From the NCBI GenBank assembly GCA_038825875.1, contig JAWBOS010000001.1, positions 14,881 through 78,880 on the forward strand: a stretch of 64,000 nt of DNA, read 5' to 3'. Shown in pieces: positions 1 through 45,953 of the stretch (within the stretch, counting starts at the first letter, position 1; each line of letters starts with the position of its first letter). The DNA is from Candidatus Woesearchaeota archaeon (GTDB lineage Archaea > Nanobdellota > Nanobdellia > Woesearchaeales > JAWBMQ01). Below the pieces are notes generated by a model that saw only the letters and a program-made list of their open reading frames with translations, made no database searches and was not told the origin of the DNA. Both the position numbers and the translations under genes were made by a program.

Positions 1-276
1 TATTCTAAAACCATCAAATGCCATGGTTCCATAATTTTTTACTGTAAGATTAATTGATGCATTATTACTAACATTTACTATTCTTATATCCAACAACTCA
101 TATAGGATCTTACCACAATAATCCATCTTCACTGCATTTTGTCTTGCTGTATCCATCTGGCTCCCTGTAAGACTAGTAACAAATCCTATAAACATTGCTG
201 TTAAAGCCACAGCAACTGCAACTAACAACACAGTAATTATTAAACCGGACATTGATCTTTTTTTAATATTTCCCAT
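1..276 (-). CDS. Pilin-like protein with class III (archaeal type IV pilin) signal peptide; 3' partial, start codon at 276..274
   Basis: Minus-strand translation MGNIKKRSMSG|LIITVLLVAVAVALTAMF: basic N-terminus, Gly, then hydrophobic helix. GGTGA RBS 5 nt upstream (revcomp of ttatctcacc). Runs off window start. Confidence 0.45.
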   Translation of the reverse strand, partial: MGNIKKRSMSGLIITVLLVAVAVALTAMFIGFVTSLTGSQMDTARQNAVKMDYCGKILYELLDIRIVNVSNNASINLTVKNYGTMAFDGFRI

Positions 277-361
277 TTATCTCACCCACTAAGCGCATTA
301 TTTTAAATTGAACGTAACCATATATAAATTTTTTTTATTACTTTAAGATGATAAAGATAGT

Positions 362-1066
362 TCATTTAACCTTAACATTCTCTACTCTAAATCTTATATA
401 ATCTGCTTTTGAATATAGCGTAATATATAGATCATAATCCAGTTTCTGGGTATTCATTGAAACTTTGACTGTTGAAGAAACTAAAAAATTGCCAGATTCC
501 AATAGCTTAATCTCACCAGTTCCTGTTTCTGTAGTTGGATCATTCAAAAGATAAAATCTATATTTAGGACTAAAAGTTTTGTTGTTTATTTTAAGAGTGA
601 TAGATTCCACAATCTGAGAAACATTAACTGGATCCAAATCTTTCCTTATTCTAACTTGAATATAGGAATTTTCCATTATTATATGAGTCTCATTTTCGTA
701 TGAAAAAACATCAGCTTCAGATGCTATAACAACACCTCCCTGTTCTATCCTCGTATATGGTTCTACTAATTTTTCTTCAAATCTTCCACTCCAGAGAAGT
801 GCATTTTCTGAAAAATTAATTGCTCCTGAAGGAATGTTTAGCTCTACAATTCTTTGAGAACCTGGTCCTTCCTTAATTACGGTATCAATTGAAGTTTTCA
901 AATTTTGAAATTCACTAACCACTTGTTGAAAAGCAATTTGTTCTCTTGTTCTTCTAAATAATGGAAATCCAAAACTTAAGAGAATGCCCAATACCAACAA
1001 ACCTATAAGAATCCATAACACTACTGAAACCCAAACTTGTGATTTTTTCATAATTTCACCAATCAA
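362..1066 (-). CDS. Secreted/pilin-like protein with N-terminal hydrophobic anchor (possible class III signal peptide MKKSQ|VWVSVVLWIL)
   Basis: N-terminal KK then long hydrophobic segment; 4-nt overlap with upstream pilin-like gene; N-x-S/T sequons; no recognisable catalytic motif. Confidence 0.4.
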   Translation of the reverse strand: MIGEIMKKSQVWVSVVLWILIGLLVLGILLSFGFPLFRRTREQIAFQQVVSEFQNLKTSIDTVIKEGPGSQRIVELNIPSGAINFSENALLWSGRFEEKLVEPYTRIEQGGVVIASEADVFSYENETHIIMENSYIQVRIRKDLDPVNVSQIVESITLKINNKTFSPKYRFYLLNDPTTETGTGEIKLLESGNFLVSSTVKVSMNTQKLDYDLYITLYSKADYIRFRVENVKVK

Positions 1067-1575
1067 ATATTAAAAAATAAGATATTTTGACATTTTTCAA
1101 TTTTTCCTTTTAAAATAGATATTGAAACATCTGCACATCTTTTAAATGAACCATCAGACATCAACAATACGGGAAAAATGTATATTTCACTAAAATCATT
1201 TAATTGAGAATAATCTATTATAATTCTTTTAACTTCTCCTGTTTCAAGTTCTACATTCTGCTCTTGAACAATAAGATGATTTGTAAGATTTGAAAGTCTA
1301 ATATAAAGTCTATCTATCTTTCTACCTGTATTTTCTAGATATACTTGAACAAACTTTGAGGTTTCATTGTAACAAACCATAGAAATCTGATTTCTCATCC
1401 AAATCTTAAAAGAAACCTGAGCTTGACAGTTTATAATCTGTGTTCTTGTCTGATCTGCCGTTTCTTTTGTAGAAAAGATAAAAGAATTTGACCAACCTAT
1501 GATCAAAGCACCAACAGCTACTACAAAAGCAACCAGTAAGATTTCAGTAACTATTGTTGAAGCGCCATATTTCAT
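1063..1575 (-). CDS. Archaeal type IV pilin-like protein (class III signal peptide MKYG|ASTIVTEILLVAFVVAVGALI)
   Basis: K-Y-G then Ala/Ser and hydrophobic helix with Glu near +7, typical of FlaK/PibD substrates; ATGA overlaps on both sides. Confidence 0.5.
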   Translation of the reverse strand: MKYGASTIVTEILLVAFVVAVGALIIGWSNSFIFSTKETADQTRTQIINCQAQVSFKIWMRNQISMVCYNETSKFVQVYLENTGRKIDRLYIRLSNLTNHLIVQEQNVELETGEVKRIIIDYSQLNDFSEIYIFPVLLMSDGSFKRCADVSISILKGKIEKCQNILFFNI

Positions 1576-2060
1576 TTTTCATCACAAAAAGGAACTTTTT
1601 CATATACAATCTTTCTAGAATTACAATAAACCCTATAAACATCATCTCCACTTTTCTCAAGATAAAAAGGAATAACCTCTAACGAAAAAATCACATTATC
1701 CTTAAGCACTTTGAATTCTCTCTGATAAGTTGATCTTGGAAGTTTATCTTCGATCAATTTTGTATAAACATTGCCATAAATGTCATAGGTAATAATTTTA
1801 AAACCATCTACTGTTCTGGAAGATGGATTTGAAAGAAGTAATTTTACTACACTTTGCTCTTGACAGTACTTTTCTGTTCTTATCCATAGATATGCACATA
1901 ATTCTCCATCTACTCGCTCCTTCATGTTTTTAACGCTTTCCTTAGTTGAAGATATCATCCAACCGCCAACGATTGAAGCACCTACAACTAGCAATAAAAT
2001 CAAGAGTACCCATGAAACCCACAAACTCACTCCCTTTTTATTAATTGTGTTCATTTTCAA
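1572..2060 (-). CDS. Archaeal type IV pilin-like protein (class III signal peptide NKKG|VSLWVSWVLLILLLVV)
   Basis: KKG followed by hydrophobic helix; translationally coupled in the pilin/adhesin operon. Confidence 0.5.
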   Translation of the reverse strand: MKMNTINKKGVSLWVSWVLLILLLVVGASIVGGWMISSTKESVKNMKERVDGELCAYLWIRTEKYCQEQSVVKLLLSNPSSRTVDGFKIITYDIYGNVYTKLIEDKLPRSTYQREFKVLKDNVIFSLEVIPFYLEKSGDDVYRVYCNSRKIVYEKVPFCDEK

Positions 2061-2527
2061 TAAAGCCCCATTGAAACAAAGTACTCATGCTTATTTAAAA
2101 AGATAGTATTAATCTTACCATCATACACATACTGGAAGTACTGATCAGGTATACTAGTAAAAGTACTATTTAAATTTAAAATACTACCATTTGATAACAA
2201 ACGAATCTCTAATTCTTTATCAACATATACCCATGTTACGTTTCCATCACTTAAAAACACCAATATCGATGAATTCAAACCCTGAGATGAAAGAAATTTT
2301 TTGTAATCCTGAATATAAGCAATAAGAGCACTCCCCAAGTCTAATTGATTAAATAAAGCATAATTAACTATTACCGGAATTTCTTTTTGAAAATTTTCAA
2401 TAAAATAAGCTCCTACAATAACATCTTTTTTAATACTAGATCTTATAAAATATGCGAAAATTGCAACTATCAAAATCACAAAAAGTAGGAAAAATTGGCC
2501 TTTCTTGTTAAGACCTTTCATTTTCAT
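2057..2527 (-). CDS. Archaeal type IV pilin-like protein (class III signal peptide NKKGQ|FFLLFVILIVAIF)
   Basis: Textbook KKGQ + hydrophobic stretch; N-x-S/T sequons; 4-nt overlap with giant upstream gene. Confidence 0.5.
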   Translation of the reverse strand: MKMKGLNKKGQFFLLFVILIVAIFAYFIRSSIKKDVIVGAYFIENFQKEIPVIVNYALFNQLDLGSALIAYIQDYKKFLSSQGLNSSILVFLSDGNVTWVYVDKELEIRLLSNGSILNLNSTFTSIPDQYFQYVYDGKINTIFLNKHEYFVSMGLY

Positions 2528-5500
2528 TCAACAACCTCAAAGTCCAATAAAGGATTTCCAAAGGAATCATAACCAATATTTACTATTCTTATTTTTCTCA
2601 CACCTGAATCAAGTTTAAAATTTTTGGTTTTAAACTTAAAGTTCTGTAAAGGAATAAAGACCAAAAGATTGTCTTTTTCAATGCTCCTCAAATTTCCAAA
2701 TGTAATCTGCTCAGTTTCAATTAGATTTTTATACAAATATGATTCAACTGTTCTAGGATTGAAATCAGGCGTAGTGACAAAAAGATAGAATGATCCTGAA
2801 GAAAGATCTCCCTTAATAGCATTAGCTCCCTCAACAGCAAAAACTCTAGAATCATCAACACCAATTCCATAAGCATAATCCTGAGTTACATTGTAAAGCA
2901 TTTTGAACAAAGAATTACTTGTTTCCTCTAATTGAAAATAACCTATAAACTCATCTACTGGTGATGTTATTGACCTAGCAAATGTATTATATCCATCAGA
3001 AAGTACAATAGTAAAAGTAAATTCATTGCTAAGGAATTCCATGGAATTATATCTCGGAGCCTTAAATGTCAAAAGATATTGACCGCCACCAAAATCAATC
3101 ATTGAAAAGTCCTTGACTTCATAGTTCACATCAATAGAATTAACTATTATCTTGAACCAGTTTCTAGGAATATTTGCGATTCCCATCCCATCTTTTAAAA
3201 CCTGCACATTAATAGACATAAGAGTTTCTGAAACTATAGGAGTAGTAGCAAGTGATACTGTTAATGATGCACCTGCAAGTGTATTTTGAAGAGCCTTATT
3301 GAAAACGATTTGTGTAGTGTTAAATAATCCGACTTTGTTTATACACACAACATCAACTATAACATTTCCACTTCCCGGCAAGTATACCATTGTTTCATGA
3401 AATGTAGAATCACTATAAAGGAAATTGTAATATGTTGAACCACCATCAATAGAATACCTACAATAAGCAACCTCATCAGTCTTTACTGTTACTTTTACTT
3501 GATCATTTATCACTATACCTGATGGCGTAGTATAGAGGAAAAGCGGTGGTGTAGTATCTAGCTCAGTAAAAGTATTATCGCTCCAATAAGATGGATTTAG
3601 AGCAGCATCATAACTTCTTACTCTAACATAGTAGTTCTTATTTTCAGGCAATCCACTGATATTCAAAGCAAAGTACTGATCAAGATCTACCAATTCTGAA
3701 AGAGTATAATTTTTTGAAAATACAATCGAGGAAAAATTTAACACTTGAACTTCATAAAATCTTATGATCTTTGATTCAAAATCAAGTGATTTAGTAAATG
3801 CAAGAGTCAATATGGTGGTGTTCTCAATTTGATACGCATAAATCAACTTTGGTTGTGTAGGCATAGTGAAATCAGAACAAATTCTAAAAACACCTAAATC
3901 ACCGATATTACCTGCAAGATCTCTAGCAGCAACATAAAAATAGAGCTCTCCATCAACACTCAAGGGCATTGAAACATTAGTTGAATTCACAAAAGAATAA
4001 ACAAAACTCACATTGTATGCTGAAATGTTGTAAGTATAAAGCCCGTATGCATAATCCTGAACTCCTGAACCTAAATCATTTGCAGTCCAATTTGCAGAAA
4101 ATATCTTTGCATTTGTCCAATAATTTCCTTGAGGAGCTATACAGTTCATGTGAGTAGTTGACAAAATTAAAGGAACTGAAGGTGGGGTAAGATCTGCTGT
4201 AACGTTATCACTTATAGACCAATTACTACAATAACCTGCAAGATTACAACTTCTAACTTTTATATAAAATCTATCATCCTGTTGATAAGTACCATTGTAG
4301 TAAAATATTATCTTTGTTGAATTTGTTATTCCCGTAGCGTTTAAATTTTCATTTTTATATAATTCATATTCATATTGTAATGGCAGATTGAGTAGAGATT
4401 GCTCAAAATCATAGCTACCAACAAAAGCAAATTCTATATAATCTGTCAAATTAATCCATTTTTTAGGCACTACAATGCTAGGTTCTGATGGTGGAGTTAT
4501 ATCCAATTTTGCTCCTGTTCTATCAAGCAAAATTTTATTTTGTGTAATATTAACATTTCCTGCAAGATCTCTTACTACAGCAAAAACAGTTTTGTTACCA
4601 TCATAAGTTGTGAGATAAAGTCCTCCAGAACACTGCTTATAACTGAAATCCTTTTGTAAAGAAGGAGTAATTACTATTCTATCAATTGTTACATTTATTC
4701 CTGAAACCTGAGATAAAACAAATCCACTGCAAGCATATAAGTATCCATCGAGATAAACAACTGAAGAAGTTTCGTTAAATTGAACGATTATCTCATGCCA
4801 ACCTCGATCAAGTCTAATACTGTGTGAACAAAAGTTAAGGTTTGATCCGTTGTATATAAAGTTAACTCCTAAGTCCATAGAAAATTTGTTTTGTGGTTCA
4901 ATGTAAAATCGTGAAAAAATCGTACCGTTGTTTAAAGAAATAGACTTTGAAAAATTTCCTTTTAAAGCAAAATCCTTAACCAATGGCCTACCAATAAATT
5001 CGCCTGAATATAAGATTTGATTATACTCCAACGTTACGGGAGAAAATTCATCAATTAATACACTTTCCATAACTAAACATTCATCTAAAGAACCTGTAGC
5101 CACATCATAATATATAAATGGTAAAGCAGTAACTGATTGATTATATTGTACAAATCCTCTTGCTGATAAAGTATGCAAATTTAATGCAGGCGTTGGAATT
5201 ATGTTGTCAACAGAAATGTATTTTCTAAAAATATAACTAAATCCAAAAAGATCTGTAACAGAAAGCAAAAATTCAAATACTCCATTCTGATTGGGAACTG
5301 TAATATTTCTCTGATACAAATAACCTTCTATCGTGTAATCATCAAAATATAAAGGATAGACTGCCCCAAAAGCAGTTAAATTAACAAATAATGTTCTATT
5401 ATCAAATGCTAAAAATCTCACTGTGATTATGTCATTAGGTTTTACAATTTCCTCAGAAATGCTTAAAACTCCTATCACTCCATATCTTCTAACTTCAGTT

Positions 5501-8500
5501 ATATTGATATTACTTTTCATCCCTTCTTTATTAGCCGCATCAATTGCAACAACATAATACTTATACACACCATCTATTACATAGTCAAAGTATTGTGTAG
5601 AAGTAGTATATGTAAGCAAATAAAAGACGTCATTTTCAAATGCTCTGTAGATAGCATATCTCACTGCTCCAGAGATTGGATTCCAACTGAGATTTATAAT
5701 TCCATCCCGATCATATCTATCAAGAACTTGCAAGACCGGAGCTGGTAAGATTGCATTTAGAATAAAAAACCTATAGGAAACATTTGCAAGCAAATTGTTT
5801 AAATTATCTCTTGCCTCTAACCACATAAGATATGCTCCATCTGGAAATTGGGTTGTATTGAGTATAAAAGAAGTTTCTAAACCATCAAAAATTTTTGTAG
5901 GAATGGTTGTATTTAAAAAGATCTTTAGATTATAGGTATTTTGTGGTAAATGAACCACATATGTCTTTAAACCATAAATATAAGAATCATTAACAAGATC
6001 ATAAACAAATAGTGAATAGTTTCCTATTAAATTGTCAAATATCACAAAGTACAATCTACTGCAACCAGTATTATTTAATTCATCTTTAGCACAGGCATAA
6101 ATCTGATGTGAACCCTGCAAATAATTTAAAGTGTTAACCTCAATAAAATTTTGATTTAAAAATGTGCAGTTTCCATCTATACAAAAAGTATAATTTACAA
6201 TAGAGCTATCATCGCTTGCAATAATATCAAATCTAACCATTCCCTTGAAGATTTGATTATTAGTTACTTCTTTTCCATCATGATAAACACTTACTAATGG
6301 AGCGCTAAAATCAATAAATGTATTCTTAGTTACACTTAAAGTATTTCCTGCTCTGTCATACCCTACAACCATAACAGAACATAGTCCATATGAAGATGGA
6401 TTAACATATGCACTTCCACTGATTCTAGTCAAAAATATATTGCAAATATAGATATCATAGTACTGAATATCTGGATCCCCCACAGGATCAATCAAAAAAG
6501 GAACATTAACCCTTGATGGCAAGCTAAAGTCAAAATTAATTTTACCATCTATCGTTATATTTGAAACATTAGTTTCTGCCAATAAATTATTCTCAAAATC
6601 ATAAGCTTTTGCAATAATGTAACAATTTTCAACTTCTGATCCAGAATATTGGGAAATTCCCCAGATCGTTGTTAAAGAATAAATTGTAGGACTTAAAAAA
6701 CCACAATTAGTATTTAAAGTAATGTATTTAGTATTTGAAGGAGCCAAAAATCTTAATGTAAAATTTTGTGCTTTTAGAATCGCATTATCCTCTAAATTCA
6801 AGATTCTTAAAATTTCTCTAAAATTATTGACATATTTTGAAAAAGAGACTTCTGCAAAATTATTGAAATCATCTCGTACAACAATTCTAAAGTAATGCAA
6901 ACCATCAGAGAATAAAGTTGTATCTAATGGAAAATAAGCATTAAATGCCCTTTGTTCAAAGGTATATGCAAAATCAGGAAATATAACTAATTCATCAATA
7001 GCACCTGAATAATAATCAGAAGAACCATCATTACATCCTATAAAAAGATTCTCCGTAGGTTGAACATTGCCAGAAAAACTACCTGCGTGATATTTTGAAC
7101 CATCAATAACGATTTCTACTCTCTTATTAGTGTTATCTATTAAAAAAAGTACATGATGCCATTGATCATCATTTATTGAATTTTCTGTTTGCAAAACTGT
7201 TTGTCCATTTACAAAAGCTTCCAATCGACCATTATTTAATCTTAGCATATATCCCGATGTTGTTGACATCTTATCAATCAATACTCCACTGGTTGCCGTT
7301 GTTTTGATCCAAAAACTTATACCCAAATTAGGATTAGGATTCAATAAAGAATCATGATTAACCCTCAAACAATTTGAAGAAAAATAAATAGCCGATCCGT
7401 AATAACCAGGACCATAAGTAAAATCAGAACCTATTTGAGTGACAGTTCTAGCATAAAAAGATCTATCTGCGTATGTACCATCAAATGGCAAAGTTAGCGA
7501 AGAGTTTTTATATTCTGTAAACCTTGAAGAATCAACAAAAAGCTGAAAATCATATTTTGGATTTATATCAAAATAATAAAAACCAAAAACTGATTTGTTG
7601 TAAACATAATATGCATCTAATGTCTGAAACAAACTGGGTTTTGTAAAATCTGCATACAAATTAAAATTCCCTGAAACAATATTTCCAGCTATGTCTTTAC
7701 AAGCATAATATATTGTGTTTATTCCTTCATTAAGAATAAAACTTATCGTATGTTTTCTAAGACCACTCAGGATATAAGGCATATTATCAAAAGGAAGATT
7801 AGATCTTGAGATCCTACACTCAGCATCTTCGTTTGTGTCAAATTCTATAACTATTGGATTATAGTTATACTTTTGATCAAAAGGGATGTTATAGACAATA
7901 GGAGCACTTGAATCAATTTCTAAAATTTTAGCAACCTTCAAAACATTTCCTTGTCGATCTAAAGCAGTAATGTTCACCAAAAAATTTCCACTACTTATTG
8001 ATGGAACTGTAAAATTAAAACAATAGACACCATCATTAGCAACTGAATCGCAATCTGTTCCATCATCTCTCATTTTTCCTGTAATTGGAGAAAAGAAGTG
8101 TATTGTAATATTTACATCATAATTAATGTCATTTTGATAATAAACTATTGCATTATCTCCAGGTTTAAATTTTTGCTTAGAAAAATAAACAATTCCAACT
8201 GAACTAGGAGCAACACAAGAATAAATTTGAGACAAGAAGAAGGATCCAACATAAACATAGCCACAATATCTAATAATCCCATCATACAAAATATTATCTC
8301 TAACATCTCCAAATTCCACTATTAGATTGTTTATTGTAGAATTTAGAATATGAGAATATAGAATAGTTGAGTTTAAAACAGTTGATGAATCTACTACAGA
8401 ATGGTTTATTATAGAATTAACAACATTAGAATTAATCACAATGCTGTCTGGGCTGATGTATGACTCTGAAAAACCTGAAAAAAGTGTAAACAACAGGAAA

Positions 8501-8547
8501 ATTAATAAAAACAACCATTCTTTTCTTTTAAATAACAAATCAGTCAT
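2524..8547 (-). CDS. Giant (2007 aa) secreted surface/adhesin-like protein with Sec signal peptide, LamG/concanavalin-like lectin domain and FN3-like repeats; heavily N-glycosylatable
   Basis: N-terminal MTDLLFKRKEWLFLLIFLLFTLFSGFS signal; LamG-like signature about aa 385-540 (ISFWIKTT..GVLI..LRLNNGRLEAFVNGQ..NDDQWHHVLF..VEIVIDG..LFIGCNDG..YSGAIDELVIF); FN3-like LSWNPISGAVRYAIYR; dozens of N-x-S/T; no C-terminal TM anchor. Confidence 0.6.
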   Translation of the reverse strand: MTDLLFKRKEWLFLLIFLLFTLFSGFSESYISPDSIVINSNVVNSIINHSVVDSSTVLNSTILYSHILNSTINNLIVEFGDVRDNILYDGIIRYCGYVYVGSFFLSQIYSCVAPSSVGIVYFSKQKFKPGDNAIVYYQNDINYDVNITIHFFSPITGKMRDDGTDCDSVANDGVYCFNFTVPSISSGNFLVNITALDRQGNVLKVAKILEIDSSAPIVYNIPFDQKYNYNPIVIEFDTNEDAECRISRSNLPFDNMPYILSGLRKHTISFILNEGINTIYYACKDIAGNIVSGNFNLYADFTKPSLFQTLDAYYVYNKSVFGFYYFDINPKYDFQLFVDSSRFTEYKNSSLTLPFDGTYADRSFYARTVTQIGSDFTYGPGYYGSAIYFSSNCLRVNHDSLLNPNPNLGISFWIKTTATSGVLIDKMSTTSGYMLRLNNGRLEAFVNGQTVLQTENSINDDQWHHVLFLIDNTNKRVEIVIDGSKYHAGSFSGNVQPTENLFIGCNDGSSDYYSGAIDELVIFPDFAYTFEQRAFNAYFPLDTTLFSDGLHYFRIVVRDDFNNFAEVSFSKYVNNFREILRILNLEDNAILKAQNFTLRFLAPSNTKYITLNTNCGFLSPTIYSLTTIWGISQYSGSEVENCYIIAKAYDFENNLLAETNVSNITIDGKINFDFSLPSRVNVPFLIDPVGDPDIQYYDIYICNIFLTRISGSAYVNPSSYGLCSVMVVGYDRAGNTLSVTKNTFIDFSAPLVSVYHDGKEVTNNQIFKGMVRFDIIASDDSSIVNYTFCIDGNCTFLNQNFIEVNTLNYLQGSHQIYACAKDELNNTGCSRLYFVIFDNLIGNYSLFVYDLVNDSYIYGLKTYVVHLPQNTYNLKIFLNTTIPTKIFDGLETSFILNTTQFPDGAYLMWLEARDNLNNLLANVSYRFFILNAILPAPVLQVLDRYDRDGIINLSWNPISGAVRYAIYRAFENDVFYLLTYTTSTQYFDYVIDGVYKYYVVAIDAANKEGMKSNINITEVRRYGVIGVLSISEEIVKPNDIITVRFLAFDNRTLFVNLTAFGAVYPLYFDDYTIEGYLYQRNITVPNQNGVFEFLLSVTDLFGFSYIFRKYISVDNIIPTPALNLHTLSARGFVQYNQSVTALPFIYYDVATGSLDECLVMESVLIDEFSPVTLEYNQILYSGEFIGRPLVKDFALKGNFSKSISLNNGTIFSRFYIEPQNKFSMDLGVNFIYNGSNLNFCSHSIRLDRGWHEIIVQFNETSSVVYLDGYLYACSGFVLSQVSGINVTIDRIVITPSLQKDFSYKQCSGGLYLTTYDGNKTVFAVVRDLAGNVNITQNKILLDRTGAKLDITPPSEPSIVVPKKWINLTDYIEFAFVGSYDFEQSLLNLPLQYEYELYKNENLNATGITNSTKIIFYYNGTYQQDDRFYIKVRSCNLAGYCSNWSISDNVTADLTPPSVPLILSTTHMNCIAPQGNYWTNAKIFSANWTANDLGSGVQDYAYGLYTYNISAYNVSFVYSFVNSTNVSMPLSVDGELYFYVAARDLAGNIGDLGVFRICSDFTMPTQPKLIYAYQIENTTILTLAFTKSLDFESKIIRFYEVQVLNFSSIVFSKNYTLSELVDLDQYFALNISGLPENKNYYVRVRSYDAALNPSYWSDNTFTELDTTPPLFLYTTPSGIVINDQVKVTVKTDEVAYCRYSIDGGSTYYNFLYSDSTFHETMVYLPGSGNVIVDVVCINKVGLFNTTQIVFNKALQNTLAGASLTVSLATTPIVSETLMSINVQVLKDGMGIANIPRNWFKIIVNSIDVNYEVKDFSMIDFGGGQYLLTFKAPRYNSMEFLSNEFTFTIVLSDGYNTFARSITSPVDEFIGYFQLEETSNSLFKMLYNVTQDYAYGIGVDDSRVFAVEGANAIKGDLSSGSFYLFVTTPDFNPRTVESYLYKNLIETEQITFGNLRSIEKDNLLVFIPLQNFKFKTKNFKLDSGVRKIRIVNIGYDSFGNPLLDFEVVE

Positions 8548-9841: not shown

Positions 9842-11161
9842 ATGAAAGAAATTGTAGTAGGAAGAAGCCCTTCAGATTTGAAAAAATTAGGCTTGAAGGG
9901 ATGTGTAAAGATTGGAAAGATGTACATTAGAATGGGAGAAAACCTTTCTCTATCAAATCCTGTTTACGTGGATTTATCAACTAGTCACGTAATCCTCATA
10001 GTGGGAAAACGTGGTTCTGGTAAATCCTATACAATGGGAGTTGTAGCAGAAGGATTTGCATTACTTGAGCCTGAAATTCGAAAGAACATAGCTATAGTGA
10101 TGATAGACACTATGGGAGTATATTGGACTATGAAGTATCCAAACAAACAGCAAGAGGATGAACTTGAAAGTTTTGGACTAAAGCCGCAAGCGGTTGATTG
10201 CATAACCTATGTCCCGTATGCATATTTTGATAGATACAAAAATGAAGGAATTCCTGTGGATCAGAGATTGATATTACCTGCTTCAGAAATTAGTCCTGAA
10301 GAATGGGCAAGTGCATTCAGAATTAGTCCATTTTCAAGAGAGGGAGTTATTATTTCAAAAACGGTTTTAACACTAAGAGAAAAAATTCAAGAATATACTT
10401 TAGATGATATGATTTCTTTTGTCATGAAGGATGAAGAAGCAGACAGTATTACAAAAATGTCAGTAGTTAACTTATTTAAAATGGCGAAGGGATGGGGATT
10501 ATTTGGAAAACCTTCAACTAAGATAGTAGAATTGTTTAATGCTGGTAAAGTTTCAGTCATAGACATATCTCCATATGCTACAATGCCAGGAGGTTGGCCA
10601 ATCAAAGCACTTGTTACTGGTTTAATCGCACAACATGCATTCAAAGAGAGAATGAAATTTCGAAAAGATGAAGAATTTCAGGAGTTATCTTCTGTAAATA
10701 GTTTTTTTACATTTGAAAAAAAAGAAAAAAAGAACATTCCTCTTATTTGGCTTGTTATTGATGAAGCACATGAATTTCTGCCAGTTGATGAAAAGGATGC
10801 AAATGCGGCCACAGAACCACTGAAAATAATTCTTAGAGAAGGAAGACAACCAGGAGTAAGTTTAATTCTTGCAACTCAGCAGCCAGGAAAAATACATACT
10901 GATGCAATAACTCAAGCCGACATAGTAATAGCACACAGGGTGACTTCAAAAATAGACATTGATGCATTACAACTCCTTGCTCAATCGTGGATGAAAGAAA
11001 GTATCACAGCTTCAATGAATCAGTTACCCAGTGCTAAGGGCTCTGCAGTTCTCTTTGATGATACTAATGAAAGATTATTTTCTATTAGAATAAGACCTAG
11101 AATAAGCTGGCATGGTGGAGGAAGTCCATCTGCAATTCCATCTATTTCTTCACAACAGTAG
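9842..11161 (+). CDS. HerA/DUF87-family (COG0433) P-loop ATPase
   Basis: Walker A VGKRGSGKSYT about 50 aa from N-terminus after a short barrel-like segment, Walker B LIWLVIDEAHEF, arginine-finger region; FtsK/HerA-like architecture. Confidence 0.6.
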   Translation: MKEIVVGRSPSDLKKLGLKGCVKIGKMYIRMGENLSLSNPVYVDLSTSHVILIVGKRGSGKSYTMGVVAEGFALLEPEIRKNIAIVMIDTMGVYWTMKYPNKQQEDELESFGLKPQAVDCITYVPYAYFDRYKNEGIPVDQRLILPASEISPEEWASAFRISPFSREGVIISKTVLTLREKIQEYTLDDMISFVMKDEEADSITKMSVVNLFKMAKGWGLFGKPSTKIVELFNAGKVSVIDISPYATMPGGWPIKALVTGLIAQHAFKERMKFRKDEEFQELSSVNSFFTFEKKEKKNIPLIWLVIDEAHEFLPVDEKDANAATEPLKIILREGRQPGVSLILATQQPGKIHTDAITQADIVIAHRVTSKIDIDALQLLAQSWMKESITASMNQLPSAKGSAVLFDDTNERLFSIRIRPRISWHGGGSPSAIPSISSQQ

Positions 11162-12530
11162 TACATATCTTTCTTACAATTGTCATGTCTACACTTACTT
11201 GTCCATCTACTGAAATTGTTAAAGGTAAAGATTTTATTTCTGGTTTAGGTATGATTTTAATCTGTTCAACCTCTTTCAAATTTGTTTTAAAAAACTCAGG
11301 ATTTCTGGGATCCCACGAAACCAAAACCTGTTTAGTAGAAACCAATCTACTAATTTTAATATCATATAAAGAATCAATAAAGGAATAGAGATTGTCAAGA
11401 TTATAGAAATTGAGATTCACATAATTACAACCAGGTTTATACTCCCCAAGAGATTGATTTTCAGAGAATCTGACAATTATAAATTCAATTCCATAATTTC
11501 TAAAAATATCACAGTACTCTTGATGGGAAATATTTTGAATATTTGTAAAAAGAACTACAATTCTTCTTATTTGAGAAGCATTAATATTCTTTGCCAGTGT
11601 TGTGTGTGACTCAATTGTCTTAAGAGCATACACAAAATTTGAATAATCCTTTTGCTCTGATTCATTAACATATTTTAATTCGTTTTTTAGAAGTTCATAG
11701 TAATTTAATTGTTTATCTTTTTGGTATGTAAAAATCTTCGAGGTTCCTCTAAAAAAATCAAAATAGATAGTCTGATTAGAAAGAAACTCAAAAAACTTTA
11801 TTATGAGGTATCTGTATATATTTTCCTTTGCCGAAGTACAATAAAAGTAATTAGGAATTTCAAAGCAAAAATTCTTACACTGATTTTTATATTTCTCAAT
11901 TTCCTCGATTGAAGAAATAATTATAGGATTAGTACAATTGGATTTAGAAACTAAGTTTTGATTACAAACCAGCTTTTCACCCAAAGTACCTACCTTAACG
12001 CCTTTTTCTTGCCATACCAAACAATCAAAATCATATCTTCTGAATAAATTATCTGGCGTATCACAACTTAAAACAACTCTAGTATTATTCACAATTAAAG
12101 AATACTTTTCACTTGGAATCTCATCACATAAAAATCCATCTAGCAATTTTATACTTTCTCGTGTTTTTATTGTCCTTGGAATCGAATCTGGTGCCAAGAA
12201 AAATGAAAGTAGAAAAATGGGATATAGCGAAAATTGCTTTGCTTCTTCAATGGTATTTGCTGGTGTAAATGTGAGATTAATATATTCTATTGTCTGTGGA
12301 TTATCAAAATTTATAGATTTAGTAGATGAAAGTAAAAAGGATTCAGTAGTTACGATATTTTCACAAAAAGTTTCTATTTCCCTTCCTGAAAGTTTCTGAA
12401 GGTTTTGCTGAACAGATCTCTGATAGGATAACTTTGAGTATTGCACATAACCCGCATAGATAGTTAATCCCAGTAAACCAATTCCAACAATTAATGCAAA
12501 CAATAACGTATATTGAAATAAATCTTTCAT
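11142..12530 (-). CDS. N-terminally membrane-anchored, Cys-rich, N-glycosylatable extracytoplasmic protein of unknown function
   Basis: TM helix LLFALIVGIGLLGLTIYAGY at N-terminus; many Cys and N-x-S/T; last gene of a three-gene minus-strand operon. Confidence 0.4.
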   Translation of the reverse strand: MKDLFQYTLLFALIVGIGLLGLTIYAGYVQYSKLSYQRSVQQNLQKLSGREIETFCENIVTTESFLLSSTKSINFDNPQTIEYINLTFTPANTIEEAKQFSLYPIFLLSFFLAPDSIPRTIKTRESIKLLDGFLCDEIPSEKYSLIVNNTRVVLSCDTPDNLFRRYDFDCLVWQEKGVKVGTLGEKLVCNQNLVSKSNCTNPIIISSIEEIEKYKNQCKNFCFEIPNYFYCTSAKENIYRYLIIKFFEFLSNQTIYFDFFRGTSKIFTYQKDKQLNYYELLKNELKYVNESEQKDYSNFVYALKTIESHTTLAKNINASQIRRIVVLFTNIQNISHQEYCDIFRNYGIEFIIVRFSENQSLGEYKPGCNYVNLNFYNLDNLYSFIDSLYDIKISRLVSTKQVLVSWDPRNPEFFKTNLKEVEQIKIIPKPEIKSLPLTISVDGQVSVDMTIVRKICTTVVKK

Positions 12531-13447
12531 CTTTCTTGATAAATCTCCTGGACTAACTCTTTAATCTTTTTAGAATTATATTTTTTACTCAAATGTTCTA
12601 TTAATATCTCTTTAGGAATACCCTTTAATTTTGAAAGAAAGATTGTCTTTCTTATCAAGTTTAGATCTAATGTTTGTTTGACTTTGTTTTCAAAGTTAAA
12701 CTCTTTCTTCGGTTTCATATCAAACGCATTAAGTAATGTATCCTCAATATAATTCAGTTCTATTTTTCTGTTTAACTCTTCAAGATTTATCTCTGGCAAT
12801 TTCTTCTCTTCTTTTGATTCTTCTACAACGTTTTTCTTTTCTTCAGAAACCTCTTGTTGATTTCTCTGCCTTTCCTTTTCAATCATTTCTATAATTCTAT
12901 CTATTTCTGCACCATACTTATACTTTCTTTTTGTATAAACAAGCTCATAGATAAACAATGATCCTAGTAAAACCCCTACAAAAATTAAATAGTAAGTATT
13001 GAACCTTGTAACTCTTTGAGCAAAATCATCTATTGTTAATGATTTTGAAGGAAGATTTGTTTCATTAACCTTCATCTTTGGCAATGTAAAATTGAATGTA
13101 TAAAGTTTTTTATTCACTAGTATTGCTGAAAGAACTAGAGGATCTTTAAGGGGAACAATCAAAAATTCTGCTGACCCATTATACTGCAAAACACTCCATG
13201 ACAAAAATTGAGCATTTGGTGTTCCTAACAAAATAAAATCTTCTGAAAACGGAAAGATTATTACTGAATCATTACAATACAAAGAAACCTTACAAAAAGA
13301 GGAAACATTACAGTTATCGTGCAAACAAATAGTAACATTATCTTCTGTTTGACAAATTTCTGCATTAATTAAAGAAAAGGGAATGGAAGAGTATAAAAAT
13401 ATCAAAAAAAGATAAATTCTAAAAAAGCGCTTTTGAAAATTCATCAA
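12527..13447 (-). CDS. Type I membrane protein (signal peptide, Cys-rich ectodomain, one TM, highly charged cytoplasmic tail), unknown function
   Basis: Signal IYLFLIFLYSSIPFSLINAE; TM YLIFVGVLLGSLFIYELVY; K/E-rich C-terminal tail; 4-nt overlap with downstream gene. Confidence 0.4.
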   Translation of the reverse strand: MMNFQKRFFRIYLFLIFLYSSIPFSLINAEICQTEDNVTICLHDNCNVSSFCKVSLYCNDSVIIFPFSEDFILLGTPNAQFLSWSVLQYNGSAEFLIVPLKDPLVLSAILVNKKLYTFNFTLPKMKVNETNLPSKSLTIDDFAQRVTRFNTYYLIFVGVLLGSLFIYELVYTKRKYKYGAEIDRIIEMIEKERQRNQQEVSEEKKNVVEESKEEKKLPEINLEELNRKIELNYIEDTLLNAFDMKPKKEFNFENKVKQTLDLNLIRKTIFLSKLKGIPKEILIEHLSKKYNSKKIKELVQEIYQER

Positions 13448-13487
13448 TAATTCTTAGAATTCGTATTTTAAAAAACTTTTGAAAATC

Positions 13488-13775
13488 TCAATCTTCTCTT
13501 GATAAAAATCCCACTAACTCTGATAAAGCCTTGCCCACTCTTTTTCCCTTCTCTGTTAGCTCCAAATAATTTAACCTACCGCTTCTCTTTACCTCTACAA
13601 TCCCTTTCTGTTCAAACAACTTAAGAATCTTAATTACATGAGAATAAGTGCAATCAATTCTCTTAGCAAGAGTAGATCCATAGATAGGTTCTTGGGAATT
13701 GATAAACATCTCCACCAATATTTTGGTTGGTTTATCTTGTAAAAACATGTCGATTAGAGAGATATTTTTCTTCAT
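13488..13775 (-). CDS. Small winged-helix transcriptional regulator (ArsR/MarR-like)
   Basis: 95 aa; helix-turn-helix-like GSTLAKRIDCTYSHVIKILKLFEQKGIVE followed by a wing; first gene of operon with the two membrane proteins. Confidence 0.5.
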   Translation of the reverse strand: MKKNISLIDMFLQDKPTKILVEMFINSQEPIYGSTLAKRIDCTYSHVIKILKLFEQKGIVEVKRSGRLNYLELTEKGKRVGKALSELVGFLSRED

Positions 13776-13909: not shown

Positions 13910-14019
13910 GGGGACGTGGTGTAACCAGGCAGCACGGCTGGCTCCAGAAATTGGAGCGCTGAACAATGATGCAGCCTTGAAGAAACCAGCAAATTAGGGT
14001 TCAAATCCCTACGTCCCCA
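13910..14019 (+). tRNA. tRNA-Trp (anticodon CCA) with a 37-nt intron at the canonical 37/38 position (13948..13984); no encoded CCA
   Basis: Acceptor GGGGACG/CGTCCCC, D-arm GTGT/GCAC, anticodon stem GCTGG/CCAGC split by the intron, loop CUCCAGA, T-arm TAGGG-TTCAAAT-CCCTA, discriminator A73. Intron contains CTGA-ACA-ATGATGC. Confidence 0.8.
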
Positions 14020-14059
14020 AGATTAATATTAACAAACAACATAACAATATTAAATTAGT

Positions 14060-14132
14060 GGGCCGGTGGTCTAGTGGCTATGACGTCGCCCTTACAAGGC
14101 GGAGGTCGCCGGTTCAATTCCGGCCCGGCCCA
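14060..14132 (+). tRNA. tRNA-Val (anticodon TAC), no encoded CCA
   Basis: Acceptor GGGCCGG/CCGGCCC, anticodon stem TCGCC/GGCGG with loop CTTACAA, T-arm GCCGG-TTCAATT-CCGGC, discriminator A. Confidence 0.85.
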
Positions 14133-14254
14133 TCGCTTTTTAACATATTAGCAGATAATTGGTCTAATTGTCTAATTAATAAGCAAAGACTTAAAGTGTT
14201 TTATAAACAACAATATTTAAAAATAAGACAGAACTCCCTGCATATGGTGATATT

Positions 14255-34633: not shown

Positions 34634-35227
34634 TTACTTCTTCTGTGATTCTTGTTCTTTTTTAGAACCTGTGGTCGGTTCTCTTACAACTAACCAAATC
34701 GCTCCTAGGGTTAAAGCAAGCATTAAAATGCCATAAAAAACATCTTCCCAATCTATGCTTATCCTTCCAAAAAGAAGCCTTAAAAAATTGATATTGGGAT
34801 TTGAAAGAATTTCATTAAAATCAATGACCATAAAAAGTATGACACCCACAGAAACAAAAACCGCAATGAGAAACCATTTCCTGTATTTAGGATCAATCTT
34901 AAATTGATCTTCTCCACTATAACCGTATAAAGATGCTGCAAGAATAACTAACAAAGAGATTATTATGAAAATAATCATAACTTTGGGAATAAAAGAAACT
35001 AAAAAGGAAACTGCCTTAGCTGAAGAAATTACCAAGAATGCAATGCTAAACGCCACGATAGCATTTAGATTTTTCTTTCTTACTGTTTCTGTTTTTGTAA
35101 AATAGCCAAGTATGTTAGTCCTATCCAGTACAGCATAAAGTAATGTAAAAATAAGCAAAAATGGTAAAATCACATCAAAGAATCCTAACCTTGCCAAAAA
35201 AAGTAGTGAATTTCCAAAAGCACTCAT
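34634..35227 (-). CDS. Polytopic membrane protein, unknown
   Basis: 197 aa, about 5 predicted TM helices. Confidence 0.4.
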   Translation of the reverse strand: MSAFGNSLLFLARLGFFDVILPFLLIFTLLYAVLDRTNILGYFTKTETVRKKNLNAIVAFSIAFLVISSAKAVSFLVSFIPKVMIIFIIISLLVILAASLYGYSGEDQFKIDPKYRKWFLIAVFVSVGVILFMVIDFNEILSNPNINFLRLLFGRISIDWEDVFYGILMLALTLGAIWLVVREPTTGSKKEQESQKK

Positions 35228-35950: not shown

Positions 35951-36937
35951 CTATTCTTTAGGATGCTCAAAAGTCAAATATTTAGTTATTTCATCTCTTA
36001 TTAAGGGGTTTAACTCCATAGGTCTAACAAGTGCCATATAGAAAAAAGTAAAATACACAGTTTTAACGCCACTAATGAAGTTTTTCATAACATCTGCTAT
36101 AACAATAGCAATTATTACAAAAACAATTAGAGGTATAGCTGATATTTTAAGCGCTCCAATTGAAAAAACCAGAGCATTGGAAATCATAGCAACTAGAATC
36201 CCTAAAACAAAAGAAAGAGCCAAAAAAACCAAGAAAATTCCACCTAGTAGCATTACCATTACTTGTCCCATAAAATCCAAGCCTAATACTCCTACTATTG
36301 TTGCAGGAATGTTTCTTTTTACTTCTTTAAGTCTAAAAACAACCTCTTTTAAAGATTTCTGTTCAATTATCATTGCAGGAATCAAGAAATGTTTAGCAAG
36401 ATCCCAAACTTCCAAAATAAAAGAAAAAAACATTAGCAATAAAACATTAATAAAATTACTTCTTTTGTTTGAATTTTTTGTATTTGCATGAGATAATAAA
36501 TAGTCAACAAAGGCTATTGTAATCATAGATCCAGTATGTTTGAATTCCTTAGCAGCATCAGATAATGCAACTTTATCTCCTTTAGCGAACTTATAAGCAT
36601 AAGCAGATATCAAAAATTTTTGTCTAACAGAATAATAGAAACTGAAGGGGTATAAAACAAAAAGATCAATTAATAAGAAAATTAATCCAAGGAGGAAATA
36701 ACTTGGAAAAAAGACAAGAATCAGAATTGAAACCAATAACATTAAAAGAACTATTAATGACATAATACTCATATTTATTATAGGTCTAAAAATTTCTAGT
36801 TTATTTCCAAATAGAAGAAACGTATGCTTTAACAAATAAATTGTATCAGAAAATTTTTCTTTTGTAGTTTTTCCTTGAAGGCTCTTATAAAAGGATTGTG
36901 GAAATTCCATGAGTTTCAATAAAAGTAAAGTAAACAA
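35951..36937 (-). CDS. Polytopic membrane protein, unknown
   Basis: 328 aa, multiple TM helices; antisense ORF 36075..36491 considered spurious. Confidence 0.4.
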   Translation of the reverse strand: MFTLLLLKLMEFPQSFYKSLQGKTTKEKFSDTIYLLKHTFLLFGNKLEIFRPIINMSIMSLIVLLMLLVSILILVFFPSYFLLGLIFLLIDLFVLYPFSFYYSVRQKFLISAYAYKFAKGDKVALSDAAKEFKHTGSMITIAFVDYLLSHANTKNSNKRSNFINVLLLMFFSFILEVWDLAKHFLIPAMIIEQKSLKEVVFRLKEVKRNIPATIVGVLGLDFMGQVMVMLLGGIFLVFLALSFVLGILVAMISNALVFSIGALKISAIPLIVFVIIAIVIADVMKNFISGVKTVYFTFFYMALVRPMELNPLIRDEITKYLTFEHPKE

Positions 36938-43973: not shown

Positions 43974-45953
43974 GTGGTGAAAAAAATGGAAAATAAATAC
44001 TATCAAAAATTTGTAAGGGGTATTTTATTTTTAATATTTGCAAATGTTCTTATGTACTTTGCACATGGTCTGAGTATTGTGGATTTGAGCACATTTGACT
44101 TATTAAACAGAAGTTTTGGAAACGTGACATTGAGAGCAAATCTAAGTGAAGGAACTCATGAATATTTCTCTTGCTCGTTGTACCTTAATGACAATTTAAA
44201 TGAAACAAAAATTGCTCAAAATAACACTATTGTTTCATTTGTCAAACTAAACCTCAACTCATCTAGTTATAGTTACAGAATAGAATGTTCAAACGATACT
44301 GAAACAGCAAGCTTATCTGGCAATTTTTTTGTTAATCGAGTATTTAGTGCAAGATCAAATGCAGAAGTAATTGTTTACAAAAATTATCCATTCAGATTGA
44401 ATTTAACCTCTATTTTTAATGTAAATGATCCAGAAAGAGATGTTATTGGTTTTGAACTTTTAACTGAAAATGATGAAGTTTCCCTCAGCGAAAACATTCT
44501 CGAAGGAAATTTTTCAAAAGAGGGTATTTTTGTTTTAAATTTTTCATTATATGAGGTAAATGTCGAACCAAAATTCCAAAGAATTGGCACGTTGACCATA
44601 AAATCAATGATTCCTCAAGGTAGTTTAGAATATAATAAAAGCATTACTTTAAATGATGATGAAGCTAAAAAACAAGGAGAAAAGGTCTATGGCAGATTTA
44701 CGCTAATTAACACAGGAACAATTCCCTTAGAAATTAAATTAACATCTAGCACTGATTCCTTAAAGGTAGAAAACAAAAAAACATATTCTTTTTCAATATC
44801 TCCTAATGAAGAAGCAAGGATTAATCTTGAATATCTCATTGATTTTAATCTTCCCTCAGGAGTAAATGAAATTGCCACACTCACTATTGAAGCCAACAAT
44901 TCCCAATTCAATTTTAAAATGAGTGATTCGATAAAGGTTTTTGTTTTTGTTCCATCTTTATTAGAAGTAAACGAACTATATCTTTCCGCAGAATTATCTA
45001 ATGAAGAAATCAATCTATTAAGCTCAGATTTCGAAAGGAAAGAGAATAAATACACTATAAAATCTTCATCTAATTATTTACCAGTAAAACCAGGAGATCA
45101 AGTAAGAATTGAGGTCTTATTAAAAGCAAATCTTCTCAATTTTTATGACATCTACGGAAAATTGAAAATAGACAAAGATGAATTTGATATTGAAACTGAA
45201 AATGAAGAAAGTTACATTGAAATAAAGAAGGATAAAACAGACAAGATTTCATTTTCGTTTGACGTGCCTCAAAGAGTAAAATCTGATACAACATATCCAT
45301 TTGAAATCACAATTGAAGGAAAAGACTCCACTTATCGCAGAAGACATAGAATCACAATTCTTGGTTATCTAACTATAGACAAAGATTCAAAGTCAATTTA
45401 TGTAAAGGACATAACACTTAATCCTACCGAAATAGATTGCAAGTATAGCACAACCTATTTGACAGGTACTATTTACAATACCGGATACTCGCAAATAACA
45501 TTAAACTACAGATTAATAAATAGAGATCTTAATTTCACAATAGAGAATTCTTGTACATTGCGAGAGTATACATCTTCAAGAAGAAGCGATGATTACTGTG
45601 ATATATTTGAAGAGATCTCTTTTAACAAAAACATAAACCCAGGAAATTACCGATTTGAATTCGGAGTAACTGACAATTCTGGAAGATTGCTCTATGGACC
45701 TCAGTATATTGCACTAAAAGTAAAGGAATGTCCTGTAATTCAACCAACCTTACCAGAAAAACCAGCTGAAGAGAAAAAGAATGAATCAATAGTTGTCATA
45801 GAAGTTCCCACGAATCAAACAGAAACACCAACCGTTATAATAGAAGAACCCAGCAAAACTCAATTAAAAGAAGTAATACTATACACTGCGATCATTATAC
45901 TTTTGATTTCAGTAATCGTTATGACCATAATCTTAATAAGGAATCTTAAATAA
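43974..45953 (+). CDS. Cell-surface (S-layer/adhesin-like) glycoprotein with signal peptide, Thr/Pro-rich stalk and C-terminal TM anchor
   Basis: Signal ILFLIFANVLMYFAHG; many N-x-S/T; stalk PTLPEKPAEEKKNES..TNQTETPTV; C-terminal helix ILYTAIIILLISVIVMTIILI + basic tail. Confidence 0.55.
   Translation: MVKKMENKYYQKFVRGILFLIFANVLMYFAHGLSIVDLSTFDLLNRSFGNVTLRANLSEGTHEYFSCSLYLNDNLNETKIAQNNTIVSFVKLNLNSSSYSYRIECSNDTETASLSGNFFVNRVFSARSNAEVIVYKNYPFRLNLTSIFNVNDPERDVIGFELLTENDEVSLSENILEGNFSKEGIFVLNFSLYEVNVEPKFQRIGTLTIKSMIPQGSLEYNKSITLNDDEAKKQGEKVYGRFTLINTGTIPLEIKLTSSTDSLKVENKKTYSFSISPNEEARINLEYLIDFNLPSGVNEIATLTIEANNSQFNFKMSDSIKVFVFVPSLLEVNELYLSAELSNEEINLLSSDFERKENKYTIKSSSNYLPVKPGDQVRIEVLLKANLLNFYDIYGKLKIDKDEFDIETENEESYIEIKKDKTDKISFSFDVPQRVKSDTTYPFEITIEGKDSTYRRRHRITILGYLTIDKDSKSIYVKDITLNPTEIDCKYSTTYLTGTIYNTGYSQITLNYRLINRDLNFTIENSCTLREYTSSRRSDDYCDIFEEISFNKNINPGNYRFEFGVTDNSGRLLYGPQYIALKVKECPVIQPTLPEKPAEEKKNESIVVIEVPTNQTETPTVIIEEPSKTQLKEVILYTAIIILLISVIVMTIILIRNLK

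Follow-up and report, generated by a model that had tools for sequence, protein, structure and literature searches.

Described type IV pilus loci and the Woesearchaeota operon

Archaeal type IV pilus (T4P) loci of the Methanococci/Thermococci type (clade 1) encode large predicted tip adhesins together with at least five minor pilins (Makarova et al. 2016, PMC4858521). System 1, described in a preprint (10.64898/2026.04.22.720090), combines numerous pilins and adhesin-like proteins with a platform encoded by two genes and is found in DPANN archaea; the same preprint places standalone pilin genes of M. maripaludis at a locus apart from the main pilus cluster. Golyshina et al. 2017 (PMC5498576) described an expansion of LamG-like proteins in DPANN archaea, with linkage to T4P loci in some cases. 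The operon analysed here lies at one end of a 64,000-nucleotide stretch of a Candidatus Woesearchaeota contig (JAWBOS010000001.1, positions 14,881 to 78,880), referred to below as the window. It encodes a giant secreted surface protein followed by a series of small proteins, S1 onwards, and it is likely to provide a DPANN archaeon of the Woesearchaeota type with the structural module, adhesin plus pilins, of a type IV filament system. The window has a G+C content of about 30% and carries archaeal housekeeping genes (ELP3, TYW1, RIO1, L10e, S3Ae, Nop56/58, fibrillarin, thermosome, CDC48, LonB and FtsZ), and the closest proteins in the database carry the annotation Candidatus Woesearchaeota.

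An earlier note on this DNA had interpreted the locus as an adhesive type-IV-like pilus or tip-adhesin system. Its observations were confirmed in part, and its interpretation is supported by pilin relatedness and by a conserved gene neighbourhood. Counterparts of S1, S2, S3 and S4 were detectable by BLASTP, in the same gene order, in distant DPANN-type contigs, where they accompany proteins that share a C-terminal module with the giant. In 9 of 11 loci, with the window clade taken as three loci, the gene directly behind that of the module protein is S1-like, and in all nine its product keeps the N-terminus [KR][GAS]↓Q[FIY][YF], in which the arrow marks the predicted cleavage site. In the compact operons of L036 and L041, the S4-like gene directly precedes a gene for a T2SSE ATPase, and L041 continues into two T2SSF genes, the first matching the N-terminal and the second the C-terminal half of FlaJ, which represent a split platform. 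The L041 ATPase matched PF00437 with E=7.7e-31 and the FlaI model over its full length with 416 bits, under the archaellum FlaI cut-off of 550. As judged from these sequences, the adhesin-pilin operon in the lineage of the window no longer adjoins the genes for ATPase and platform.

In the BLASTP comparisons, S4 was matched over its full length by L036_241 (9e-26) and L041_241 (4e-25), and an EGxGSQR motif is common to S4 and the S4-like proteins. S2 was linked to L034_159 (2e-18), L036_155 (6e-14) and L041_162 (2e-12), and S3 to the canonical pilins L036_172 (3e-16), L034_175 (5e-12) and L041_192 (6e-10). For S1, the E-values to S1-like proteins ranged from 2e-7 (L036_161) to 1e-3.

The operon had been described earlier as running off the window edge with five small genes behind the giant. 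It does continue, for about 1.4 kb, as read in the 99%-identical contig L027, and the number of small genes is seven. The full operon in L027 comprises the giant, S1 (156 aa), S2 (160), S3 (170), S4 (229), S5 (172), S6 (167) and S7 (113); S5 is completed, and S6 and S7 are added, beyond the edge. The whole order is also present in L029 and in a third metagenome-assembled genome (MAG), L030, while in a fourth MAG, L037, the order S1-S6 is kept behind a giant of 41% identity. Since the order is conserved in relatives in which the giant is only 61% or 41% identical, the genes of the operon are real. The small proteins themselves are 37-59% identical between L027 and L029. In the contigs of the relatives, S7 is followed by a DUF424 gene on the opposite strand, then by an HTH_3 gene and gyrB.

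Coupling of six minus-strand genes by ATGA overlaps had also been proposed. The genes do lie on the same strand, but ATGA overlaps were found at two junctions only, giant/S1 and S2/S3. S1 and S2 are separated by a 2-nt gap, or overlap by TTGA if the TTG at 2060 serves as the start of S2, which would then have 162 aa. The S3/S4 junction is an 11-nt gap with a Shine-Dalgarno-like GGTGA, or again a TTGA overlap if the TTG at 1066 serves as the start of S4 (234 aa). Between S4 and S5 there is an 85-nt spacer, with an archaeal TATA-like box, TTTATATA (321..328), downstream of an A-run, and GGTGAG (281..286) 5 nt before the S5 ATG. Because the spacer holds both elements, and the A/T box and GGTG are also present in L029 and L030, S5 probably has its own promoter. 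A sigma-70 promoter and terminator scan gave nothing above shuffles, the sigma-70 model being uninformative for an archaeon.

Compared with the described systems, the present locus fits the clade 1/System 1 kind (Epd-type, Methanococcus/Thermococcales). The likeness is one of gene content, the ATPases being placed as FlaI-like and not by clade. As in that system, many pilin-like genes with class III signals and a large secreted predicted adhesin stand in one operon, the ATPase is FlaI-like and the platform is split in two genes, here in L041. Furthermore, S1 has Q at position +1 in all nine loci, and Q at +1 is typical of DUF361/Epd pilins. Separation of pilin genes from the main cluster has its parallel in M. 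maripaludis, and System 1 is itself reported in DPANN archaea. The locus differs in its adhesin family, in its triplicated pilin and in its separation from the machinery. In place of DUF2341, the giant has LamG (PF13385) together with a C-terminal module that lacks annotation; none of the loci examined showed a dedicated gene for an EppA-like peptidase, and the Pfam model Class_IIIsignal/DUF361 gave no match.

The bacterial type IVa tip complex, fimU-pilVWXE with PilY1, is likewise encoded by one operon for a large Sec-exported non-pilin and several pilin-like proteins of low similarity. PilY1 also has a constant C-terminal part and a variable N-terminal 'business end', and its proposed role is that of assembly priming and tip adhesin. 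However, no sequence or domain homology was detected, and the machinery here is archaeal and FlaI/FlaJ-like, with no outer membrane or secretin. Since the giant has no PilY1 domain (there was no Pfam match to the PilY1/Neisseria_PilC beta-propeller), the resemblance is an organisational analogy only.

The 'ARMAN' archaeon Mia14, in the available part of its description (PMC5498576), also has a small genome and LamG jelly-roll proteins next to T4P genes, for which a host-cell role is proposed. Mia14 belongs to the Micrarchaeota and not to the Woesearchaeota, and it is likened here by description rather than by sequence; the same part of the source makes no mention of the C-terminal module or of the fixed S1-S2-pilin-S4 order. 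Lastly, S3, S5 and related pilins have weak N-terminal similarity to the UpsA/UpsB models of the Sulfolobus Ups/Aap pili, and the ATPase and platform of the related operons give secondary matches to UpsF and to BasE and BasF of the bindosome (Bas). Unlike in those systems, there are no UpsX and no sugar-binding proteins at the locus, and the scores are far under the equivalog cut-offs.

The pilin-like proteins and the giant

A class III signal comprises a short basic leader, G or A (sometimes S) at position -1, usually K or R at -2, and about 20 hydrophobic residues. When N-termini were scored by a regular expression and a hydropathy proxy, S1-S6 were all class-III-like, S3 excepted at -2. Each of the six has a K/R/N-G/A/S site followed by a hydrophobic helix, and the predicted sites align in register: S1 KKG↓QFF, S2 KKG↓VSL, S3 KYG↓AST, S4 KKS↓QVW, S5 KRS↓MSG and S6 KKG↓LSS. 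Across the orthologues of S1-S6, position -1 is restricted to G, A or S. The basic-then-hydrophobic starts that had been likened to prepilin-peptidase substrates are thereby borne out, with the correction that the S5 site is KRS↓MSG, not SG↓L, and that S3 departs from the usual pattern at -2.

S2, S3, S5 and S6 are paralogues with a common hydrophobic N-terminal helix and four invariant residues, namely two Cys, one Asn and one Pro. In a space of 5.8 billion sequences, their profile reached a protein annotated as 'archaellin/type IV pilin N-terminal domain-containing' with E=2e-14 and proteins bearing PF07790 with E=1e-7 and 4e-5. These annotated relatives have the canonical N-terminus KKG↓VSP(V/L)IATVLLV and the same two-Cys pattern. 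When the profile was compared with the sequences of the PDB, 8 of the 10 best matches were archaeal pilins or archaellins, each weak (E 0.03-3) and covering the helix only. S3 itself gave weak matches to Arch_flagellin, UpsA and TIGR02537, and the counterparts of S3/S5/S6 in L036 and L034 pass NCBIfam TIGR02537 with 32.1 and 28.7 bits (cut-off 20). Because BLASTP ties S3 to pilins that pass this model, S3, S5 and S6 are, on sequence grounds, three paralogues of the single canonical pilin of the compact operons, S3 being the closest. An AlphaFold2 model of the full-length S5 orthologue P0003, built from a 14-sequence alignment, had a predicted local distance difference test score (pLDDT) of 83 and consists of a helix (residues 11-54) and a beta-sandwich.

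The giant has a Sec-like N-terminus, MTDLLFKRKEWLFLLIFLLFTLFSGFS, by inspection, and a C-terminal transmembrane segment was not found in it. The description of a predicted Sec-secreted protein of 2007 aa with high potential for N-glycosylation and a LamG/concanavalin-like domain was upheld. There are 49 N-X-S/T sequons, compared with 26 +/- 4.6 in composition-preserving shuffles. Residues 400-524 match Laminin_G_3 (PF13385) with 67 bits against a cut-off of 27.6 (E=2.7e-18) and PF02210 with 39.7 bits against 22.9 (E=8.2e-10). FN3-like repeats had been described as well. The Pfam fn3 score of residues 1566-1650 was 14.2 bits, under the cut-off of 25, the Ig-like Pfam families were also under threshold, and BLASTP of the giant against itself revealed no internal repeats; however, the region of the relative P0049 that aligns with this stretch passes fn3 with 39.7 bits. 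A second LamG-like stretch at about residues 1200-1280, suspected by eye, was dropped since the self-comparison shows no internal repeats.

Few relatives of the giant were found by standard searches. A word-indexed search of 5.8 billion proteins returned two, 99% and 61% identical and both from Woesearchaeota MAGs. A tblastn scan of GTDB genome contigs with the giant recovered no relative, and the only matches, to the LamG stretch, were bacterial LamG domains. There was no match at E<=1 by phmmer to the sequences of the PDB, or to DUF2341 of Pfam.

The giant consists of a Sec-like signal peptide, a variable N-terminal part of about 1300 aa with the LamG domain, and a conserved C-terminal module of about 690 aa. 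The module family is visible only in an exhaustive HMMER search, in which giant residues 808-2007 retrieved 1395 proteins at E<=1e-3 and 47 at E<=1e-30. A word-indexed search with the module alignment gave mostly generic Big_13/Ig proteins, the true members being P0047 and P0165 only. The module occupies the C-terminus of proteins whose length ranges from 520 to 6033 aa. It is present in at least 66 protein clusters, with more than 300 clusters matching at E<1e-10, and its family is widespread in DPANN-type contigs. Many family members of about 760 aa are a signal peptide and the module with little else. The N-terminal parts vary, with LamG in the window giant and Cys-rich repeats or Ig arrays elsewhere.

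A module alignment of 15 sequences (A5) contained 25 invariant columns; it was too diverse for a locus search, and a narrower alignment, A6, yielded two loci. The order of the parts is Ig/Big_13-like, fn3-like, an Ig domain with TDExAxC...TNxTYHE, filamin-like Ig and a terminal domain. These names are taken from the relatives, in which the parts score as Big_13/Y_Y_Y, fn3 and Filamin, and not from the giant. The last 170-200 aa or so (motif ..PSFGY..) had no Pfam match in the relatives. A hidden Markov model of this terminal domain found it in 66 of 268 retrieved proteins (520-6033 aa), its end lying at a median of 13 aa from the C-terminus. Neither Pfam nor NCBIfam has a model dedicated to the family that the module defines. 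Tandem pairs of module-family proteins were observed in L036 and L042 (Table 1), which points to a putative adhesin that was duplicated and has diversified within a single locus.

Alternative explanations and proposed assembly

Several observations weigh against the assignment of the locus to a type IV filament system. As had been remarked before, no assembly ATPase or platform gene is adjacent: none of the T2SSE ATPase, T2SSF platform or A24 peptidase families was found among about 60 window open reading frames (ORFs) scanned, or in the roughly 6 kb beyond the window edge in L027. The -2 residue of S3 is Y and not K/R, and several sites have Ser at -1 instead of the textbook G/A. No window protein passes a curated pilin model, the scores being 16.3 bits for PF07790 (cut-off 25.2) and 12.4 for TIGR02537 (cut-off 20). 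A Foldseek search of the PDB with the S5 model returned Kir channels (TM about 0.33), Asf1 and generic helix-plus-Ig folds, and no pilins. The AlphaFold model of giant residues 808-2007, made from a 3-sequence alignment before the wider family was known, had a pLDDT of 33. In two loci, L042 and L043, no pilin genes follow the module protein. Moreover, the contact between giant and pilins, and a position of the giant at the tip rather than at the base or in the envelope, are inferred.

The possibility was considered that the small proteins form a short membrane-anchored stalk that presents the giant, without a long fibre, comparable to the pseudopilus of the type II secretion system or to the Sulfolobus bindosome. 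The giant has no C-terminal transmembrane anchor and would need a partner to stay on the cell; there are many distinct small subunits, compared with one canonical pilin in the compact operons; and a stalk of this kind would be served equally well by these ATPase and platform genes. Archaeal type IV filament machineries that display binding proteins have been discussed (10.64898/2026.04.22.720090). However, the canonical pilin belongs to a widespread KKG↓VSPxIATVLLV family that includes annotated archaeal pilins, and its triplication, with at least one copy having its own promoter-like element, fits a bulk filament subunit. No genes for substrate-binding proteins or ATP-binding cassette (ABC) transporters are adjacent. 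A display stalk is rather unlikely.

It was also considered that the giant and its family are S-layer-like or other envelope proteins, for instance of a collar or patch, that are encoded together with pili but not carried by them. For large secreted proteins of archaeal T4P loci, a role as adhesin or as S-layer protein has been considered (PMC4858521), the glycosylation potential of the giant is heavy, and some family members occur in tandem pairs or without adjacent pilins (L036, L042 and L043). This explanation is nevertheless unlikely. Lengths between 520 and more than 6000 aa, combined with hypervariable N-termini on a constant C-terminal module, form a pattern typical of adhesins and not of lattice-forming S-layer proteins, and the giant has a LamG lectin domain, has no membrane anchor and is encoded by a gene translationally coupled (ATGA) to S1. 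A pilus-borne adhesin is preferred over a lattice protein because of the constant module, the hypervariable N-terminus and this coupling.

Highly improbable is a complex of the giant with uncleaved, ordinary type II membrane proteins and no type IV filament machinery. The failure of the window proteins to pass a curated pilin model, the lack of machinery in the window and the absence of pilins from the fold search would agree with it, whereas the passage of the conserved operon into T2SSE ATPase (L036, L041) and T2SSF genes (L041), the profile link to annotated pilins and the restriction of -1 to G, A or S across orthologues speak against it. An archaellum was rejected, there being no FlaH, FlaF/G, FlaC/D/E or FlaX in the window, L036 or L041 and a sub-threshold FlaI score for the ATPase.

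On the preferred reading, that of a pilus with an associated adhesin, S1-S6 would be made as membrane-inserted pre-pilins, and a peptidase of the FlaK/PibD/EppA type would cut the basic leader after [K/R/N]-[G/A/S]. The giant would be exported by Sec, as its N-terminus indicates, and would dock via its C-terminal module onto a priming or tip complex of low-abundance S1, S2 and S4; this docking is proposed because the genes co-occur strictly and because of the translational coupling. A FlaI-like ATPase and a two-gene FlaJ/TadC platform would polymerise the canonical pilin (S3, S5 and S6) underneath. This machinery is adjacent in the related operons and would be encoded elsewhere in the lineage of the window. 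The variable, N-glycosylated N-terminal part with LamG would be held away from the cell and bind the surface of a partner cell or a substrate.

Neighbouring genes and biological meaning

The positions of the operon genes, of their parts and of the other features are collected in Table 1.

Table 1. Positions of the operon and neighbouring features in the window, and gene orders and features in related contigs
Feature	Position	Strand	Remarks
Giant secreted surface protein, 2007 aa	2524..8547	-	ORF; orthologues at 99%, 61% and 41% identity
LamG/concanavalin-like lectin domain, giant residues 400-524	6976..7350	-	PF13385, PF02210 above cut-offs
Conserved C-terminal module, giant residues ~1312-2007	2527..4614	-	part common to all family members
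S1, 156 aa, pilin-like	2057..2527	-	NKKG↓QFFLLFVILIVAIF; candidate minor pilin; ATGA overlap with giant
S2, 160 aa (ATG start)	1572..2054	-	NKKG↓VSLWVSWVLL; two conserved Cys; candidate minor pilin
S3, 170 aa, pilin	1063..1575	-	MKYG↓ASTIVTEILLVAF; ATGA overlap with S2
S4, 229 aa (ATG start after GGTGA), pilin-like	362..1051	-	MKKS↓QVWVSVVLWILIG; largest small subunit
S4-S5 spacer, 85 nt	277..361	-	probable internal promoter and ribosome-binding site, inferred from sequence
S5, first 92 of 172 codons in window	1..276	-	KKRS↓MSGLIITVLLVAVAV; pilin paralogue; candidate abundant pilin
HerA/DUF87-FtsK-like P-loop ATPase, 439 aa	9842..11161	+	upstream of giant operon
Conserved trio	11142..13775	-	no Pfam assignment
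Rfam tRNA match, 110 nt	13910..14019	+	51 bits; uncalled by ARAGORN
tRNA-Val	14059..14134		
Polytopic ORF	34634..35227		no GxGD motif
Polytopic ORF	35951..36937		no GxGD motif
659-aa protein	43974..45953	+	candidate surface protein
MoxR-type AAA ATPase and overlapping vWA/DUF58 protein	54011..56141	+	classic MoxR-vWA pair
S7, single-pass membrane protein	L027 19324..19665		
Single-pass membrane protein	L036 7266..7685		
Single-pass membrane protein	L041 13765..14178		
Single-pass membrane protein	L034 4970..5293		
Single-pass membrane protein	L040 3775..4131		
HerA/DUF87 ATPase of fourth MAG	L037 3..1310		63% identical; directly adjoins operon
Tandem module proteins	L036 513..5742		977 + 760 aa
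Tandem module proteins	L042 1..3360		partial + 771 aa
Radical SAM/SPASM- and glycosyltransferase-like genes	L041 114..8620		upstream of pilus operon; by eye
T2SSF gene	L041 16681-18384		E~1e-16; FlaJ model positions 24-233
T2SSF gene	L041 18385-19317		E~1e-16; FlaJ model positions 196-378
Gene order	L036		two tandem module proteins, S1-like (KKA↓QFYIF), S2-like, canonical pilin (NNKA↓VSPLIATVLLIAF), 139-aa membrane protein, S4-like, T2SSE ATPase
Gene order	L041		module protein, S1-like, S2-like, canonical pilin, 137-aa membrane protein, S4-like, T2SSE ATPase, two T2SSF genes
Gene order	L034, L040		module protein, then S1-like, S2-like, canonical pilin
Gene order	L035, L039		module protein, S1-like gene, then end of contig
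Gene order	L042, L043		no pilin genes after module protein

One or two small single-pass membrane proteins without the class-III-like motif are encoded in each operon. S7, which has a plain N-terminal membrane helix only, represents them in the lineage of the window and had no BLASTP similarity to those of the other operons. Upstream of the pilus operon of L041, the radical SAM/SPASM- and glycosyltransferase-like genes are accompanied by a gene for a 586-aa polytopic membrane protein with no Pfam match. These genes may be a glycosylation cluster for the sequon-rich adhesin and pilins.

On the strand opposite to the giant operon, the gene for the HerA/DUF87 ATPase is kept at the operon in all four related MAGs; in L037 no methyltransferase gene lies between the two. 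The ATPase was considered as assembly motor and rejected, since it belongs to the wrong ATPase family and the compact operons use T2SSE and lack HerA/DUF87. Its adjacency may be either functional or inherited synteny. The trio next to it occurs in the same order in L027 and L029. Its members are a winged-helix protein of 95 aa, a protein of 306 aa and one of 462 aa that has an N-terminal membrane helix. The 306-aa protein has a signal peptide, one membrane helix and a charged coiled-coil tail, and it gave a weak TadB/TadC_N match (E=0.004).

Further into the window, the tRNA match just upstream of tRNA-Val is probably an intron-containing archaeal tRNA. Two polytopic ORFs were considered as prepilin peptidase and rejected for want of a GxGD motif. 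The N-terminus of the 659-aa protein reads ..KFVRG↓ILFLIF..; the protein has a membrane helix at its C-terminal end and matched DUF1573 weakly. Apart from the genes of the operon, no other ORF was picked up by the scan for class-III-like motifs.

DPANN archaea live attached to other cells, and to our knowledge the way in which they recognise and hold their hosts is largely unexplained. A tentative proposal, somewhat short of even odds, is that the module proteins are each plugged by the same docking module onto the S1/S2/S4 trio at the tip of a type IV pilus, so that interchangeable N-terminal 'warheads' set the host or partner that is attached. What the analysis adds is the definition of a family by its C-terminal module, and a gene order that is fixed: module-S1-S2-pilin-S4-(ATPase-platform). 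It adds no new principle, since the literature already describes type IV pili that have large adhesins, and LamG proteins close to pilus loci of DPANN archaea. The locus and its relatives provide a testable gene set, in which a modular surface protein is combined with one family of canonical pilins and with three accessory pilin-like proteins that are likewise conserved. Should the module dock onto the pilus, the N-terminal domains, which differ enormously from lineage to lineage, would be candidates for what determines host specificity. If the proposal is true, the docking-module family would be an archaeal counterpart of PilY1 in function and a candidate for what sets the host range of DPANN archaea, and it could be used to predict or compare host ranges from metagenomes.

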